Shown here piece after piece: positions 5,434-64,000 of a DNA stretch of 64,000 bases (positions are counted from its first letter, which is position 1; each line of letters opens with the position of its first letter). The notes beneath the pieces are model-generated. The model was not told the origin of the DNA, did not search any database, and saw only the letters and a list, made by a program, of their open reading frames with translations. A program made the translations under genes and the position numbers. This DNA is from Microthyrium microscopicum. Its lineage: Eukaryota. Location of the stretch: positions 1,054,001 to 1,118,000 of the forward strand of contig MU004239.1 of assembly GCA_010405405.1 (NCBI GenBank), in the 5' to 3' direction.

Positions 5434-7500
5434 ATGCGTTCCTTTCCTCTGATATTACTAGCCGGCAATGGCGCAGCGTTGGCAACAAGCAATCATATAT
5501 CGAGTATTGCACCTCTCCCGGAGTTGAAATTGCCTTATGGCACTTGGCAGGCCACTGCGTACGATGAAGATACAGATGTACAGTATTTCTTACAAACTGA
5601 CGGAATGAAGGGCTGATGTAGGCCAGACATATATTTTCAAAAACATTCGCTTCGCTGCACCACCAGTCGGTCAATTGAGATTCGCAAAGCCAGCTCCACC
5701 ATTACTTATTGAAGGCGTACAGACTGGAAAAATAGGAAATGACTGTATCTCGACTACGGGCTGGGCATTTGGTGCTGGGTCATTGGGCAACCTAGTGAAT
5801 AGTGTCATTCCAGGGGCAGAAGGTTGGATCATTTCATCTTAAGCGACTTAAGTCCTGACTTCTTCGCTAGATTGCCTGTTTCTTGATGTTTTCGTGCCTA
5901 AGAGAGCGTTTCTTGAGGGCGCTGCTGCAAAGCTTCCTGGTATGAGACTATTCAGTCTTCCACTGTTGTATTTGCAGTTAATGATGCTAGTTGTTTATTA
6001 CATGTATGGCGGAGGGTATACAAAGTCCTTCAGCTCTTTTCTTTGAAGGCGCTGATCACTATGGCCTAGCTTCGATATAGGTAACAAACAACAGGTTTAC
6101 GATGGGCTTGCAATCGTCAAGCAATCAAACGGATCACTCATATATGTATCTGGAAACTACAGGGTGAGTATCTTGAACCTGATTGTGGCGTGAATTCCTG
6201 ACACCATTTAGCTGGGGGCCCTTGGCTTCCTCGGAGGAAAGACTGCCGAAGAGAATAACATGACAAATCTTGGACTTTGGGATCAACGGGCTGCATTGGA
6301 GTGGACTAACAAGTATATTTCGCTCGTAGGTGGGGATCCAGAAAATGTTAGTTGTTGGGGTGAATCAGCAGGTGCTGGATCTGTTATGTTACATCTTACA
6401 GCGTTTGGAGGCAAGCAAGATCCCTTGTTTAAACGAGCTGTCATCGCGAGTCCATTCTTGGAGCCCAGGACAGACCGAAATGGAATACTTGAGGCCAACT
6501 TCAGGACTTTTGAAGCTGGCGCAGGTTGTGCTGGAAAAGGGGTAGCTTGTTTGAGAACAGCAAGTCTGCGTAATCTCGAAAATGGATCCAATGCTGTTTT
6601 CAAAGCATCTCCAGACCGAGCTTTTGCTTTTGGGTATGATATCAAAACACCGTTCGACATGAAGCTGGATAAACACTGACTGCTTGTTAGACCGATACCC
6701 GATGGTCAATGGATGCGCCAATTACCTGCTCTTGAATTCCAATCGGGTCAGTCATAGGCACAGTGTTGTCAAATCTAACTAACAAAGCAAGGGAATCATT
6801 GGAAAAACTTGGAATCGCTAATTGTATCGCACGTGTCGAACGAAGCCGATATCTTCATACCCACTTCCGTTACTAGCAATGCTAAATGGCAAGAATATCT
6901 TACCCAGTGGTATCCAGATCAGGTGAATGTCGTTAAGTCGATAATCGAGCACTACTCAAACAAAACTTCAATCAAAGATAAAGTCAAGCCTACATCGGAG
7001 ATTCAATATTCCACTGCAATACTCGCTGGATTGCATCTGACTATCCCGACAAAACCTATATGCTCCAGTATTCCCGAATGGGAGGACAGCACGGAGTCGA
7101 CGTTTTGGCCACTTACATTGGAACAAAAACCGGGCTTTCAGCTGCCCAGAATGCGGATAAGGCTTTTCCTGCCTTTGCCAAGGCCTATCAGTCTTACTTG
7201 TTATCACAGGCGAAGACTGGAGATCCGAACATGTATCGATTAAAGAGCGGACCATCCCCAACCATTCCTTTGGAGAAGGTAGGTAGTTTAGATCATGATA
7301 TCACTGTAGTAGACGCTGGGCCGAACGGGTTTTCTACAATTCAAGACAAGTTGAACACTGCGGAAGCTTGCGACTTCTGGCTCAACATATTTGCAGAAAA
7401 GACAAAAACTCTTGATATGTTGAATAGTTTGTCCTTCCTTTCCGCTAATTGTACGATCATAAGCTGGAGGTTTATAGGTATCATTCCTTCAGCCAGATGA
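5434..7500 (+). pseudogene. Secreted type-B carboxylesterase/lipase carrying a 1-nt frameshift (pseudogene or assembly error)
   Basis: Signal peptide, FKNIRFAAPP, EDCLFLDV, YGGG oxyanion motif, NYRLG, NLGLWDQRAALEW, GESAG nucleophile, NEA acid and GQHGVD His, spread over about 8 short introns. Frame breaks at ~6989. Confidence 0.8.
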
Positions 7501-39164: not shown

Positions 39165-40435
39165 CTATACTTCAGAATCTTGATGATCAGTTGAAGATCG
39201 AGGAGTCTTGTCCTTGCCAAAAGCTATGCTCGATAGACGATACGAGCGATGGGCTGTTGAATGCGGCGAAGTAGGAGTATCTGCTCTACCAAATATTAGC
39301 ATCACTGCACATAACGAAGGGTTTAGGTCAAACTCACTCCTTGGAAGCTTTGCTCTCCATCATGCCAGAAGTTACAAGTCGAGCTCGACTGGCAGCTGAA
39401 GTCATGGCACTGGTGTTTTTGGAGCTGCCTGTCGCGTTCAAGCTTGGGAAGATGCGAGCCAGACCCAATTTCCGCCCCCATTGTTTGTACATGTCCAATG
39501 CATCGTTACCAAGTCCAAAAGCCAAGAAGAGGATATATCCGCTGATGATAGCAATGATGCTGTCCCAATGAGCCAGTTGGCCGTTTGTGGGAATCATTCG
39601 TGGACCCCAGTTGACGTAGTGGACATCGTTCCAGCTAAAGCCATGGAATTCTTGGGTCGCGATATAGACTAGGGACGCCACGGCGAGGGGTAAGACGGCG
39701 AATATGAGAAGAATGGAGATGCAGAGGAGGCGGTTGAAGCGTGACTTTGTGGTGGATGCGCTGGTCATGATGGTGGCGAAGTTGCGGCGGTACTTGTACA
39801 TACGGATGAGAATGAGGCCTAGATCAGTTGGTCAGTAATGACCTGAGAAGAGTTTGTAATGTCAACTTACATGCGAGATAGGCGTTGAATGTCGTAATAA
39901 CTAGTGGCCAGATGAGGATCAGGACCACGCTTGGCCATGAACGATCCACTTGCCAGTCACATCCAGTGATGGCAAAGATGTCGTAGCGATCAGATTGGAC
40001 AAGGTAGTAGATGATGATATAGAAGATGGGGAAGCCAATGCAGAGGAAGAATTCCATAACCTTGCGGTTTCTTGGATTCACTCTTGTTTTGGAGAAGTTC
40101 TTGCTTTGCGTGTTCAAAATGGCAGCAAGACGCAAAACGATGCAAGTGATGCATCCTGGTATGCCAACATTGGCTCCCAGTAGCACTCGTATCTCAAGGT
40201 CGCAGAGACCTTTGCCGTCATACCACTCAAATGTGTTGTCACGAGGCCAGATGATTGGGTTGATGACATATGTCAGCTGTATCGCAAAGAACCAACATAT
40301 CATGCATATGGCCGCAAAGTTTCGGTTTCTGACATGCCATATGAAAGGTGGGATTTCCAGTAGAATGGCGGAGACGCTGAAGATTGGAATGACGACTGCC
40401 GCCGGGTAGAGCGGAAACAATGATTCGAGGCTCAT
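39165..40435 (-). CDS. STE3: a-factor-type pheromone receptor (STE3 family GPCR)
   Basis: PFIWH, NPIIWP..WYDGKGLCD, YYLVQSDRYDI..GC, SRFNRL, FLAFGLG.DA, seven hydrophobic segments. Introns at ~39870-39819 and ~39337-39287. The last exon depends on acceptor choice. Confidence 0.92.
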
Positions 40436-40854
40436 GATTGCGGAATTAGTGTTGTATCTGGAGTAAAATCAAGGCCTTGCGAGCGAGTACACAATAGTGC
40501 TAAGAGGCAGACTTTTGGTGTATATAGCGACGATCGTTTCAATCAGGAGTAGGCTTGATACAAAGGTGTTGGAAGATTGCAGTGTGAAACAATCGAGCAG
40601 AAGAGGCTCAAGGCTGAACGAGGGTATATGCCACAATATTTGGTGTTATTGAGGATCTTGTCTATAGACCACTGATTTGATGGAGCGGTATTGAGGCCAA
40701 CGTGGTTGACTTGAGCGCTCGTCAGAAAGCATCCGAATTTGTGAAGTCATTTATTATTTCGCTATTGACGAGAACACAACAGGTTAACTCTTTGCCATGG
40801 CAATAGTATTTTAAGTTGCATTCCAATAGTGCTGTGATGGCAAGTGAGGTTGAG

Positions 40855-41560: not shown

Positions 41561-42413
41561 CCTGCCGTAGTAGTCAAGGTAAAAATAGTCCGGTGCGCAC
41601 AAAGGTGCTCTCCCAGTTCGTTTGGAGGCATCTACGATTCTCCGGAACATAGCTTCTTCCGTGCTATGGTAATGACATGTGCGGGAGCTATTCAAGATAG
41701 ATCGTGGTCCAGCACTACCCTTCGGATTCTGGGAATTCCAGGACATGTGAAAGCTGCTGAAGTTCTGGAAAGCTTTCGTAAGATGCAGCAATATTCACCA
41801 GTTCCAGAAAGTTGCGAGGTTTCTGTATCCAGATAGTCTTCTTGTCCGGCCAAGAGGATAGCGCTTGAATTGTATCAATGACATCAACTATCATAGGATA
41901 TCAGTCTTCTTGGTGCTGACGATCGGGTATCATCTGCGTTCTTTTTGTGGTCCATGTGTCCTGGACTGCAAATGCCAAAAATTCACCATTCTAGATATCA
42001 AAGGGATAGTGTACCACGCTTTGTATAATATGTAGTATTGTACAGGAAGCAATTACTCCAGGATTAATTCGGTTATCTCTAACTCAGCAGGTCAGAGGTA
42101 ACTGTGTGTGCGGCAAAAAAGAAACCCTAGAGACTATAAGAGTAGAACTATACCACAAATATGACAGCATACTTACTGGTGGCTGTCAAACAGTCGACAA
42201 ATTGAATGGCGCGCTTCTATTATGTGCAGCGCCTTCATCTCCATCTAGATGCATAGAAGCATCGATTGTCCATCGAATGCGCGGGGAACTGAAGCATCTT
42301 CTTGGTATAGAGTGCGCTGGGAGACATCGTATTTTGATGGGAGCACGCTATTTGTTTGGTTAATTGGTTGACTGCGTTTGGCTAGAGAACAAGGCAATGC
42401 AGAGACCTTTGCT

Positions 42414-44232: not shown

Positions 44233-46344
44233 TCAAATACCTGGCGCATCCAGTATCTGTGGAGTATTTCTCCGCGTGTCGTGAAATATGGATGCTGAGG
44301 CCATCCTTCGACTAGTCTTCCTGAGGTGAGCCAGCAAAGAAACTGCTCCATTTGGTGTCATACCTTCCACGCGTCTGGATTGGCCGACACTCTCTGGTTG
44401 AACACGTTTGAGTATGGACTTTTCTTCCATGCTCAAGCCGACCACTGTATCGTAGTCAATATCAGCCGGGAGAATGGCGCTTTCATCCCTCAGATAATCA
44501 CGAGCTGTTCTTTGCTGATGTTCCACGTAAGGGGCGTACCTGGCATCGATGGTAACACGTTCTCGGACGCGAGCACTGAACTTATTGATTTCTGGAACCA
44601 CTGAAGAGAGATCAGAAGTGGACATGCCATTTTGACGCAGCATTGTGTACGCGCTACGTTTGGTAGAATCTTCGCGAACGGTAAATCCGGCTGCATTCCA
44701 TTGGTTCCAGGGCATGGTCTTTTCTTGCATTGCGGTAGCCAATTCGGCCATTTCACCGCTTTCGTTTGCAAATGCCTGCCATCGAATATCGCCAACGGCT
44801 CCGACGTTTCTCCCAAGAGTCGTCAATCGCAAATCGGCATTGTCCGCTCTAGAGCTCATTCGATATTCGCTGCGAGAAGTGAACATACGGTATGGCTCAC
44901 TCACACCTTTAGTGATAAGGTCGTCGATCATGATGCCAATGTAGGCGTCAGCGCGGGACAGGGTGAAGGCAGGTTTGCCTAACGCAGAGAGGCCGGCATT
45001 GATGCCAGCTACAACTCCTTGTCCTGCTGCCTCTTCATAACCCGTCGTACCATTTATCTGGCCAGCTAGAAACAATCCTTTGATGGCTTTTGTTTCCAAA
45101 GTTGCTCGCAATCCTCGAGGATCCACGTAGTCATACTCCACACCATAACCAGGTTGTAGCATGTGAACATTTTCGAGCCCCTTAATGGTCTTGAGCATTT
45201 CGAGCTGTGCTTCTTCTGGTACAGTCATGGATATTCCGTTGGGATAGACTATGTCGTTGTCAAAGCCTTCGGGTTCTAGCCAGATAATATGGGAGTCTTT
45301 GTGTTTGAATCGAATAACTTTGGACTCTATAGACGGACAGTAGCGGGGCCCTTTGACAGTCTCCCGGATGTGAATGCTGTTTTCGAGATTTGCTTCGATA
45401 ATTGCATGAGTTCCAAGGTTGGTCGAAGTAGCGTGGCACGATAATTGCTTTTCGATTTGGACCTTTTCATTGAGATAGCTGAAAGGCATAGGAGGATCGT
45501 CACCTAGCTGCTCCTCGAGAGCTGAATAGTCGATCGTTTTTCGATCCAGCCTCGGAGGTGTGCCTGTCTTTAGTCGACCAAGTTGGAATCCGGCATCTTT
45601 CAACGACTTGCTGAGACCAAAAGTTGCAGCCTCACCCATACGACCTGACGGATAAGCTTTGAGTCCAATATGTATTTCCCCACCAAGAAATGTCCCAGTC
45701 GTGATGACTACATTATTTGTGAGGAGTATTCTTCCATCCTCCAGTCGTACACCTGTGATTCGCCCAGCTTTTCCATCTTCTTGTTGCCCTTCTTTATCCA
45801 CCACAATATCCGCTACACTTCCTTCTACCAAATTCAAGTTTTTGTATCCCAACAGCTCTTGTTTCATGTATTGTTTGTACAGCGCGCGGTCGATCTGCGC
45901 TCGAGGTCCCCATACCGCCGGTCCTTTCTTGCGATTCAGCACGCGGAACATGACACCAGCCTTGTCAACTATACGACCAACTAAGCCATCAAGCGCATCA
46001 ATCTCTCGCAGCATAGTTCCTTTGCCAATGCCGCCGAAGCTTGGATTACAAGAACAAACTCCAAGGTTATCCGATGAGGGCGTGACGAGGGCGGTTCGCG
46101 CACCAACTCGAGCGGCTGCGGTACATGCTTCGGCGCCGGCGTGGCCACCTCCTATAACGATCACATCGTAGGGTCTAGTAAAACAATTAGCCTTCATTTT
46201 CATTGCAATCGATTGAATTGCACACCTGTTGTTGGAGTCGTCGGAAATGGTTGCGAATGCACGTCTGGCCGATATAGTCCGTACTCGAGGAGTATGGCCC
46301 CAAGGTAATATGCCTCGAGGGCAATATGACAGGCGCATTGCCAT
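44233..46344 (-). CDS. MTO1: Mitochondrial tRNA uridine modification enzyme Mto1 (GidA/MnmG)
   Basis: Arg-rich presequence, [75 protein letters not shown]. In-frame 51-nt intron near 46225-46175. Confidence 0.97.
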
Positions 46345-46769
46345 TTTATCAGGCCGGGTTTGGTCAAATGGAGAAGCTTAACGCCTTTGGATGAAGGAGA
46401 AGTTTCGCGGAAGTTAGCAAAAAGTTGGCCGGAATTAAGAGGCCGCTGGTAATTATCTCCGCCATGCAGCAATTCGACCTCTTCGTTTTCGACGCGTTCT
46501 ATGACTTATCGAGACGTGAAATTCTCAAATTGATAAGAAAATGTGTCAGTAGGCGGTGTTCAAGCAAGCAAGAAAGAAGATTCATTTGCAAGACGTTTTG
46601 CAGTGAGCGCCCAAAAAAAGCTATCGACACGCGTCCTCACCTGATTTCGTGTTTGTTCAAGACGCTGGAGTTTCATCAAGCTTTGATATTTCAGCAAATT
46701 CAATAACAATTGACGTCTTTTTCTAGGACCACTAAAACATCTAGTAGCAAAACTGTCGTCATCCTGGGT

Positions 46770-60628: not shown

Positions 60629-61761
60629 CTAGTCATCACCTTCAATGCTTGCGAGTCACTGCCAAGTTGATACCTACGGAGGATACCCATTAAGTCATCA
60701 GTGGAGTATCAAAACTCGGTTTTTCGAGCTATCTACCTAAGGTAGGGTGTAAAAAAAAGATACGACTCGGGCCAATGTCGCTGGCCAGCGAATCTCACTT
60801 GACTGCTTTTCCTTTGACCGTCGATATTCTCCGAGTATAAATGAAAGTCCTCAAATATACACCGGTGTATAACCACTTTCGTGAACAAGAACATCCAATA
60901 ACTCCGCGAGTGACATGACCCTTTGAACAATGAGAGATCAGGTCCGATAGTTGTATGGCGAGAAGCATTTCAGGCGTCATAGATCGACAGGTAAGCGGTT
61001 GGAGACTATGTTCGATCAGCTTTAATCCAGAATAATGAACAGAGAAAAAGACGCTTTATATTTGTTAGAGTTTAGCTGTCATCAGATTTAGCGTATCACA
61101 CACATATTAGATGCTATGATTCAAGGCAAGAGTTTCTAGACGCCAAACCATCTGTTTCGTGCCGTACTCACACAGGGACATGATTGCTATCTTATTGCCC
61201 ATTCTAAAGTTGGAGTTTGATTTTCTGCTCTGTTTATGCTAGGATGAGTTGCTCACAGTCTCTTACAAAAGTGGCTGAATAATGTAGGTACCTTACCGAG
61301 AACAACTACCACCATACAGCGGTCAAGAACCTAATGAGATGGCAACATCAACGAAGTGACAATCATCGACATCAATCGTAACGCGAATTATCTTGAACCA
61401 TGCTCCAAGCACGTGCTTTTTCCCATGTCTCACTCCAGAGTCTCGAGTTCTTGACTTTTAGAGGCACGGTCATTCTGCTATTGGTAAGCAAAAGCCATAC
61501 GGTAACCCCGATTTAGTTAGCAATTTAACGTCCGCCGAAATCCGAGCAAGCCGAGCCTGAAGATCTGCTCTTTTCTGAAAGAACCATTCATGTATGACAC
61601 GGTGCAAGGAGTGCATAGCGCAAGATCATGACTAATTCTGAATGCTCAACATGCTGATGCTTGAACAGCTGCTCGTGTTACTGGAAGTTTTGATGCGTCT
61701 GTCACCACAATCACCCTGAAGGACTGAAGCGCGTACAGAAGGACTGAAGCGCATACAAAGA

Positions 61762-64000
61762 ATGGAACGATCGCGAGATAACGACGCTAACTCGACGAGT
61801 CCGGAACCCGGTAGACCAAGGAAACTCCGAAAAGGCACTCGAAGCTGCTGGGATTGTAAAAAGCGAAAGGTTAAATGCACTTTTGAATCGTTTACAGATA
61901 CAGTATGCATTTCGTGCAAGAGACGTGGAGCACAATGTATTAGCCAAGAGCACCCAGAGGAAGATTATCGAGTCGCTGAAGACAGTCGAGGTAAGAATTC
62001 GCTGTTTCTTGACTTGGAACCAAAAAAGTCGTATTTCCCATCTTATTCGAAGGCTGCCAAAGAATGCGATGGGTGGGTTACGGTTTTGCCACGAAAAGTC
62101 AGGATGGTCTTCCGCTACATTTCTTGACGATATCCGATGAAACCAAAAATTCACATCTCTGCCATCGCATTGGATGGCTCCCATCAGATGCGATAGGAAT
62201 TTCAACGATATCATCCAAAGAGGTTGATGGTCTTTTCGAAGCGGGTCAGCTCCAATCTTGACCTTGTACTGACCATCTTCAGGCGGCCAAGTACTTGAGC
62301 GCGTGGCGAGAGTTGAATCGCTGTTAGAGAGTCTGGTAACAAAACTCGACCAACATGTCAAGTATACTGGGAACTCGAATGGATTGGAGATACCGAAGTC
62401 TGAGGGAACCGTATCCTTGTATGATACTCGATCAAAAGACTCCATAGTGCCCTCTGTATGTGGTCCTCTTCCATGCATGCATCGTAGCTCAATTCCTAAC
62501 GTTCTGTCTATAGAAACGACCCCTCCAACAAAATAAGGAGCTTAAGGTCTGTGAGCTCAAAGTCTGCGAGCAGATGCCCACCCCTGAATCTTCTATTGCA
62601 ACACCAGGAATTTCGACCTCTGGAGATTTTGAATATATGAAGGTAAGGTTTCCCCTGTGGCATCACATTTCTGATCTCAAACGATGGAATCCAAAATCAC
62701 AAGATCTCCCATCGCACTCGATGCCTACCACGCAATGCGTTTCTGTATGAGTGCTATGGCTCCATCGAATGCGATGCGTGTTCCACGTTTCTGTGAAGGA
62801 AATATCGAATGGCCTGTCCAAGGCGTGTTCGTTTTAATCGCAATCTTATACTAATACATCTCAGTTATCACAAACCCTACTTGCAGCATTCCCGTCACAA
62901 AATGATATCGACATTCTTTGCAAGTCGGATTATCAAGCGACTTATTACTTTCACAAAATAATGACTAATGCGGACCATGGTCTCGATCACGAGGCATACA
63001 ACTTCGTCGACGAGCTAGCTCAGATACCAAGTCCTTCCACACATCCAGTTATGATTGCTAAACGCATGCTGATATTTGCATCGTTCTTACAATATTTTCC
63101 ACCTCACACGGTAGCAGAGCTCAGCGAACCGGCCTCAATAGTTATCAAACGACTGACTGATGCCGCTATTCAATTGGTGACCACGAATGACGATTTGGTC
63201 GACTGTATGGAGGGTTTGGAATGTATCGTTTTGGAAGCATGTTTCCAAGCCAATGCTGGCAACCTTCGGCGATCTTGGTATGCTCTGAGGCGAGCGATGT
63301 TAACAGCTCAAATCATGAAGCTGGATAAAGAAAATCAATCGCCGAGGAGGATCGATCCGAGAACCACGGTTGATCCTAAGTTTATGTGGCTTCGTCTGGT
63401 AATCATTGATCGATTTCTCAGCCTTATGCTTGGTCTTGCCGAAGGAAACCCGGGCAAGCTTTCATACGAAAATCTCAGCGCTGCAGATCCAAGGACACAA
63501 CTGGAGTTCATGCAGGCTGAAATCATTGGCCATCTGATCAGGCGAAATGCAACTGATCCATTGGCGCAAGATGTCCGCACGACACAAGACCTCGATGCGC
63601 AGCTACTACGTGTAGCGAAAAGCATGCCTGAGGAGTTTTGGCATCCCCCAAACTTTTCTATCCTGGAAATGAATTCTCAAGATGACTTTTCGGAGACGAG
63701 GCGTCTTGGCTATCAGCTTCATCATTTCAATCTTGTTCATTTGCTTCACCTGCCGTACTTGCTTAGTAGCAATGGCCACAGCTATGACAAATACGCAAAA
63801 TTTACGTGTATCAACGCGAGCCGCGAAATTCTTAGCCGATTTGTTGACTTTCGAAACTTTCACAAGTTCACGACCTGCTGCCGGACCGGCGATTTATTTG
63901 CTTGTAAGATATTTTCCAGTTTTAAACCCCATTTCTATACTCCGTCTGCTGGAATCAAAGACTTCTATATATATAGTATCTCCCATCGCATTTGATGGCC
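61762..64000 (+). CDS. Zn(II)2Cys6 transcription factor with fungal TF middle domain; truncated by window end
   Basis: RKGTRSCWDCKKRKVKC...CISCKRRGAQC, then EGLECIVLE..NAGNLRRSW, DRFLSLMLGL, LLHLPYLL. Introns 61991-62282, 62456-62513, 62643-62864 and 63904->64000 all keep frame. Confidence 0.93.
61991..64000 (+). repeat. Family of homologous intronic palindromic elements (4 copies in 3 introns)
   Basis: Core CCCATCGCATTCGATGG-loop-CCATCGAATGCGATGGG seen in degenerate form at 62037-62073, 62162-62197, 62708-62776 and 63982-64000, with shared flanks. Confidence 0.75.

Follow-up and report, generated by a model that had tools for sequence, protein, structure and literature searches.

Where do long introns that resemble one another within a single gene come from? 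The question is raised here by a Zn2Cys6 transcription-factor gene of Microthyrium microscopicum, which lies at the right-hand end of the window, the whole stretch of 64,000 nucleotides that we analysed. To our knowledge, the origin of new spliceosomal introns is still open, and the proposed RNA-based spread of ascomycete introner-like elements (ILEs) has never been shown directly. The original prediction had noticed that three introns of this gene share a module with a palindromic core, and had called this an introner-like family, with local intron multiplication, a small palindromic mobile element tolerated only in introns, or repeated regulatory or binding sites in the factor's own gene as possible readings. 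From the analyses below, we consider it likely that introns 1, 3 and 4 belong, as old and diverged copies, to an ILE family of this ascomycete.

The host gene and its introns

The 5' part of the Zn2Cys6 gene occupies positions 61762..64000 of the plus strand. It begins with an ATG at 61762, and the end of the window falls inside its fourth intron. Its exons (61762-61990, 62283-62455, 62514-62642 and 62865-63903, plus strand) follow from an open spliced frame and from the joints of a public contig described below; joined, exons 1-4 give an open frame of 523 amino acids. Exon 1 matches the Pfam domain Zn_clus (E 3.4e-6). A Pfam search with exon 4 returned no match, and the nearest protein atlas clusters of this exon are Ascomycota Fungal_trans clusters, with scores of 0.95-0.96. 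Directly upstream of the gene, a 20-nt unit (GAAGGACTGAAGCGCGTACA) occurs twice in tandem at 61718-61757, with 95% identity between the copies, and ends 5 nt short of the ATG; it may belong to the 5' UTR or to the promoter. Elsewhere in the window, domain matches mark an exon of a STE3-type pheromone receptor gene at 39824-40468 on the minus strand (Pfam STE3, E 2e-55), some 21 kb on the 5' side of the Zn2Cys6 gene, and an MTO1/GidA-type tRNA modification enzyme, encoded by an intron-free frame of 714 codons at 44233-46377, also on the minus strand (Pfam GIDA, E 1.3e-155).

Four introns were placed in the Zn2Cys6 gene, all on the plus strand, with the donors GTAAGA, GTATGT, GTAAGG and GTAAGA in order. 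Introns 1, 3 and 4 follow codons 76, 177 and 523, respectively. Intron 1 (61991..62282; 292 nt, phase 1) is made up of a donor, a shortened leader of 14 nt, two tandem copies of the module, and a tail with a branch site and acceptor. Intron 3 (62643..62864; 222 nt, phase 0) contains the most complete copy, and intron 4 (63904..64000; at least 97 nt, phase 1), which the end of the window cuts, shows the donor, the leader and the left half of the module. Intron 2 (62456..62513) is an ordinary intron of 58 nt; it lies outside the module family and provides an internal control. Branch-like CTGAC and ACTAAT motifs can be read in the family introns.

Seven public runs contain the stretch, and we compared four of them (X1, X5, X6 and X7) over positions 61700-64000 with a likeness threshold of 80%. 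A single X5 contig of 8271 letters matches 61700-61988, 62281-62455, 62514-62640 and 62863-63903, with 0 differing letters and 0 gaps over 1632 exon letters. It omits exactly 292, 58 and 222 letters, each interval having GT..AG ends, which correspond to introns 1-3; moved two places to the right, its joints coincide exactly with the predicted exon borders. After position 63903, at the donor of intron 4, the contig departs from the DNA, and its onward letters keep the frame, as judged by eye. The exact loss of GT..AG intervals from an otherwise identical sequence looks like spliced message, with X5 taken as RNA by guess rather than from its record. Contigs of such runs show the final joined form, rare splice forms having been dropped, and we did not count intron bins without X5 cover as evidence. 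No joint seen here indicates exon skipping or a pairing of arms across introns, as had been suggested in the original prediction; with rare forms dropped from contigs, this speaks neither for nor against them.

The X5 joints and the open 523-aa frame agree with the coordinates and lengths that had been predicted for the three introns (292, 222 and more than 97 nt), which are correct. These introns had also been described as much longer than those typical of the window. This holds roughly: their lengths are 292 and 222 nt, where intron 2 has 58 nt and the 17 short intron candidates of an ORF-joining survey of the window have 43-59 nt, but that survey is noisy and long candidates are beyond its resolution. 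For annotation, it follows that these long introns are real and are not to be read as exons or gene breaks.

A shared module with a palindromic core

The two module copies of intron 1 lie head to tail on the plus strand. Copy a (61991..62115; nhmmer match 61991-62114) is the most decayed of the family, with its arms at 62037-62053 and 62057-62073, and copy b (62116..62240; nhmmer match 62117-62240) is a short-loop form, in which a loop of 3 nt separates the arms at 62161-62177 and 62181-62197. In intron 3, where the leader takes up 21-22 nt behind the donor, the module (62643-62821 by nhmmer, plus strand) has the long-loop form, with 37 nt between the arms at 62708-62724 and 62762-62778. The left half present in intron 4, also on the plus strand, has its first arm at 63982-63998 and is matched by nhmmer with an E of 3.4e-13. 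Over the four copies, which are collinear and all in sense orientation (4/4), the nhmmer E values range from 1e-29 to 3e-13 with a profile built from these same four, and the same search found no module match in intron 2.

The core of the module was also recovered by counting. A repeat search returned a 21-nt family with four copies, at 62034, 62158, 62705 and 63979. With up to three mismatches, the 17-nt core has 8 matches in the window where 0.21 would be expected, a count that 0 of 100 shuffles reach, and the motif CCATCG-N4-CGATGG, with up to two mismatches, has 15 matches in the window where 2.25 would be expected, 7 of them inside introns 1, 3 and 4.

We compared the copies pairwise by Smith-Waterman alignment, with the donor trimmed and each of the six pairs set against 1000 dinucleotide shuffles. 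For four of the six pairs no shuffle scored as high (0/1000); copy a against intron 3 was reached by 2 of 1000 shuffles and copy a against intron 4 by 6 of 1000. Random slices of the window, used as a further control, behave like shuffles. All six pairs beat the shuffles, so that the collinear module proposed as common to introns 1, 3 and 4 is confirmed; scores no better than shuffles, which would have spoken against homology, were not found. Judged by similarity, these alignments show that introns 1, 3 and 4 are homologous. The two tandem copies predicted in intron 1 are likewise real, yet they are 69% alike over 59 nt by BLAST, and copy b and intron 3 are 76% alike over 50 nt. With siblings 69-76% alike, the module copies appear old and diverged.

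The arms of the core had been described as exact reverse complements. This is true of the consensus but not of the real inverted arm pairs, which are 83-93% complementary. Mean pairwise identity is 79% (100/126) and 73% (37/51) in the arms, against 53% (142/267) and 45% (57/126) in the module flanks. No single intron fits its own reverse complement beyond shuffles (the score is reached by 65, 172, 64 and 93 of 500), and by these comparisons the palindrome is a feature of the family consensus and not of single introns. We also considered whether the donor pairs with CAATCTT, a motif of the tail, and dropped the idea, as self-complementarity does not go beyond shuffles. Terminal inverted repeats are absent, the intron head and the reverse-complemented tail matching over just 5 nt. 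Both junctions share AG alone, letters that the splice signals need anyway; a duplication is neither visible nor excluded there.

Against dinucleotide shuffles, the minimum free energy of the fold is -80.6 kcal/mol (z -1.5) for intron 1 and -57.0 kcal/mol (z -2.1) for intron 3. Intron 2 has a z of -0.26, and the family sequences overall range from -0.8 to -2.1. The predicted folding is thus modestly more stable than that of shuffles: comparison with shuffled controls brought out a slight excess and no marked stability. An Rfam search of 61700-64000 gave one chance match (E 0.52) and no snoRNA or other family.

Family members at other loci

Run X1 is the assembly that probably yielded the window. 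Fifteen of its records match the stretch, namely the source contig and 14 others, the latter on parts of the module (62115-62204 and 62688-62776). Each of the 14 has a depth of about 100, which suggests that each is a separate single-copy locus. Two of them are 95-99% alike to the stretch, three 90-95% and nine less than 90%, over pieces of 34-73 nt, and 76% of the matched X1 sequence continues unlike the stretch. Among the matches listed, no second X1 record falls on the exons of the Zn2Cys6 gene, which argues against a close paralogue. As far as depth and likeness tell, these records show a family dispersed over many single-copy loci. Because just 14 other loci are seen, each over a short piece, the family would be a decayed one at best.

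The other loci resemble the copies of the window to different degrees. Among the matches listed, they are 86-96% alike to copy b and 82-89% alike to intron 3 (over 37-73 nt), and copy a matches no other contig at 80% likeness or more. One X5 piece equals copy b in 34 of 34 letters.

Three consensuses of loose ends among the listed matches reach upstream of the module (from one X1 record, two X1 records and one X5 record), and all three carry GTAAGAT 21-23 nt before the module, with TTCC-type letters behind it. The 7-9 letters before GTAAGAT, which are all of the visible 5' flank, differ among the three save for the final G. This succession of donor, leader and module is the same as in introns 3 and 4, the leader of intron 1 being the shortened one.

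Both forms of the module recur. The original prediction had taken the long loop of intron 3 for an insertion of about 35 nt. There is indeed a long loop of 37 nt, but it is probably not private to this intron: among the loose ends listed, at least two other loci carry a homologous long loop behind arm 1, and the loop would then be a variant of the family. At least one other locus among the matches listed has the short-loop form. A locus seen in both X1 and X5 contains two complete short-loop cores 130 nt apart, comparable to the 124-nt tandem in intron 1, and copy b agrees with one of these cores in each of 34 letters. With this second dimer locus, the tandem of intron 1 may not have arisen by local events alone.

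Two further observations concern the runs themselves. Some X5 contigs retain the donor together with a family copy, and their depths are 632 and 428; on the assumption that X5 is RNA, certain members of the family would be abundant in unspliced form or would lie within untranslated regions. Runs X6 and X7, which are labelled as a third organism, contain just small, low-depth pieces (depth ~3), identical to parts of the gene and to one family copy, which means that those samples contain, at a low level, this fungus or one very closely related to it.

The whole intron as the repeat unit

On the 5' side, similarity starts from the donor in all three introns (1, 3 and 4) and in all three readable loose-end consensuses. 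On the 3' side, where the border of the unit is given by one pair, introns 1 and 3, we compared the last 50 nt of each (62233..62282, with the branch site CTGAC and the acceptor CAG, and 62815-62864, both on the plus strand). These tails reach a global alignment score of 11, compared with -5.0 (sd 3.4) for shuffles, of which 2 in 2000 attain 11; 17 real acceptor-ending tails used as controls score 6 or less, so that 0 of 17 attain the score of the pair. A local alignment of the two tails covers 7 nt alone. The global scores suggest that the tails are homologous, and the similarity on the donor side together with this alignment points to the whole intron as the repeat unit. Similarity that spans an intron from its first base through its last is not what a repeat landing in older introns would leave.

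Searches of the window and of other sequence collections

Within the 64 kb, the family is confined to the Zn2Cys6 gene, nhmmer finding the four copies alone as significant. A look-alike of the module core was noted at 42255-42343 on the minus strand, 3' of a RING-IBR gene's stop codon (nhmmer E 0.11, not significant). It has two arm-like 17-mers in direct rather than inverted order, and it may have arisen by chance or be what is left, after much decay, of a copy outside an intron. Sites resembling the leader occur 11 times elsewhere in the window, where 4.9 would be expected; the four inspected, at 6904, 18608, 24843 and 57616, all on the minus strand, have no similarity to the introns and were rejected. 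A metagenome scan with a 20-nt core pattern gave 16 loci, which we regard as chance matches, as the 20-mer alone fits and the flanks are unrelated; 13 of these 16 loci have a G+C content of 0.54-0.62, and the other three 0.40, 0.43 and 0.50. Viral contigs gave 0 core matches. Three motifs of the family are absent from the available part of one supplement to PMC9860276, which may contain no sequences.

Comparison with known systems

ILEs of Dothideomycetes were described in Fulvia fulva, Dothistroma septosporum and Zymoseptoria tritici (van der Burgt et al., 2012, as presented in PMC3609843 and PMC4457414). According to these papers, ILEs are canonical introns that are present in multiple copies, are longer than the usual 50-55 nt, are structured and are quick to decay (PMC4457414; PMC3609843). 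PMC4457414 also reports four genes with two ILEs each, one of which codes for a fungal transcription factor, and a decayed ILE family in D. septosporum. By these descriptions, the introns studied here are of the same kind: they are spliced canonical introns, long and multi-copy, with the whole intron as the unit, no terminal repeats and a tendency to decay. The occurrence of several members in one gene, with a fungal transcription factor among the hosts, is a further likeness to the described ILEs. In contrast to them, the family here is seen at 14 other loci over short pieces, its members are 69-96% alike and not near-identical, its folding advantage is modest, and it includes three copies in one gene as well as a tandem dimer form. 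Ascomycete introner families have neither terminal inverted repeats (TIRs) nor target-site duplications (TSDs) and are biased towards genes, and this has been taken to indicate spread through RNA (PMC9860276).

The sister (stw)introns of Hypoxylaceae and the canonical introns derived from them (Fekete et al., 2021, PMC8469720) have a terminal inverted repeat of 45-55 nt and a palindrome WTTCTAGAAA; the stwintrons are of the [D1,2] type, in which the donor is split by a nested intron and splicing proceeds in two steps. The family studied here shares with them the proliferation of similar introns, internal symmetry, a short conserved palindrome, no visible flanking duplications and the function as an intron on the coding strand only. 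However, its palindrome is internal and of another sequence, and its ends are not inverted repeats. WTTCTAGAAA itself occurs in the window at chance level, with 123 matches where 126 would be expected.

Introners of algae and other eukaryotes that behave as DNA transposons (Gozashti et al., 2022, PMC9860276) are similar in that they are mobile, turn into introns where they insert, and either bring splice sites with them or create them. Many of them have target-site duplications and/or terminal inverted repeats, whereas none were seen here. Repetitive elements within regular introns were described in Rhytidhysteron rufulum, in Fusarium graminearum and in Sclerotinia sclerotiorum (PMC3609843). 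These likewise produce similar-looking introns in multiple copies, but there an insert lies in an otherwise unrelated intron, whereas here the similarity goes from donor to acceptor. The family is likely to be of the ILE kind already known, in a decayed state, and is not of the Hypoxylaceae type.

Alternative explanations

The last of these systems has a direct counterpart among the possible explanations of the locus, namely that a small palindromic, non-autonomous, MITE-like repeat landed in three older introns and elsewhere, in which case the insert alone would be shared. Such an origin would fit the inverted repeat in the conserved core and the dispersal of the family in the genome, it has a precedent in the three fungi in which repeats inside regular introns mimicked ILEs (PMC3609843), and the weak, non-significant look-alike beyond the RING-IBR stop codon could be one of its copies. 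We nevertheless consider it unlikely, since the similarity takes in the very first base of introns 1, 3 and 4 and likewise that of the three readable loose-end consensuses, extends to the acceptor in the pair of introns 1 and 3, and belongs to a unit whose palindrome is internal and whose ends lack inverted repeats; the uniform sense orientation of the four window copies speaks against it as well. It is also conceivable that one long intron was copied locally within this gene and that the matches elsewhere are a separate, low-copy matter. Of the gene's introns, at least four in number, three indeed contain the module, which is found in no other gene of the 64 kb; intron 1 contains a tandem pair; and for fungi, duplication within the same gene is recognised as a class of its own (PMC3609843, Table 1). 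What makes this origin quite improbable is that the siblings within the gene are just 69-76% alike, whereas the likeness of other loci is 86-96% to copy b (34 of 34 letters in one piece) and 82-89% to intron 3, and that introns 1 and 3 differ in their loop variant, each variant being found at other loci too. The same figures speak against recent local multiplication: the copies at other loci are closer (82-96%) than the siblings (69-76%), which argues for separate arrivals, although the comparison is biased in that it includes only those pieces that are at least 80% alike.

The better conservation of the arms than of the flanks would also be expected if the hairpins had been retained within the gene of the factor itself as sites of regulation or of protein binding, for instance for autoregulation or for the control of splicing. 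Zn2Cys6 factors bind CGG triplets, and the arms contain none; the same module, with its own donor, is present at 14 other loci, and no Rfam family was recognized. We regard this explanation as highly improbable. Among the readings that had been offered, the introner-like family is thus the one favoured by the 14 other contigs, by the donor that the copies carry with them and by the similarity of the tails of introns 1 and 3.

Proposed mechanism

As an introner-like family, the element would be a spliceosomal intron of about 200 nt, the whole of which is the unit that multiplies. Its parts, in 5'-to-3' order, would be its own donor (GTAAGA/G), a TTTCC-type leader of 21-23 nt, the module of about 120 nt, and a tail with the branch site and acceptor. 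The best-kept part of the module appears to be the pair of arms, each of the form CCATCG-N4-CGATGG, which would be able to pair into a hairpin. Because each copy would bring its own splice signals, insertion into coding sequence could be harmless. Spread would most likely be RNA-based, in that an excised intron reverse-splices and is then fixed by reverse transcription and recombination, a route that we draw from the literature on ascomycete introners and not from data of the window. The three copies most likely arrived separately and from different variants, a short-loop dimer in intron 1 and a long-loop form in intron 3. As conservation is higher in the hairpin core than in the flanks, the core probably serves the splicing of the long intron or its propagation.

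If the family were small and its insertion random, a gene with three copies would be very improbable; with a large, decayed family it would not. A more speculative idea, to which we give little credence, is that the nested palindrome is the working part of the element: its hairpin would let the excised intron survive and re-insert, preferentially in the transcripts or DNA of its own host gene, and this would explain the three copies. Were this so, the family and the symmetric introns of Hypoxylaceae would jointly suggest that ascomycetes share a way of gaining introns that depends on structure, and the dimer, seen at two loci, would spread as a unit of its own.

The locus offers a compact case, in which one gene combines three members of a family, different variants, one dimer and splicing supported by a contig. 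Should the full genome show the family to be genic and in sense orientation only, the arms of the core would become a defined target for asking what such introns need for splicing and for multiplication.
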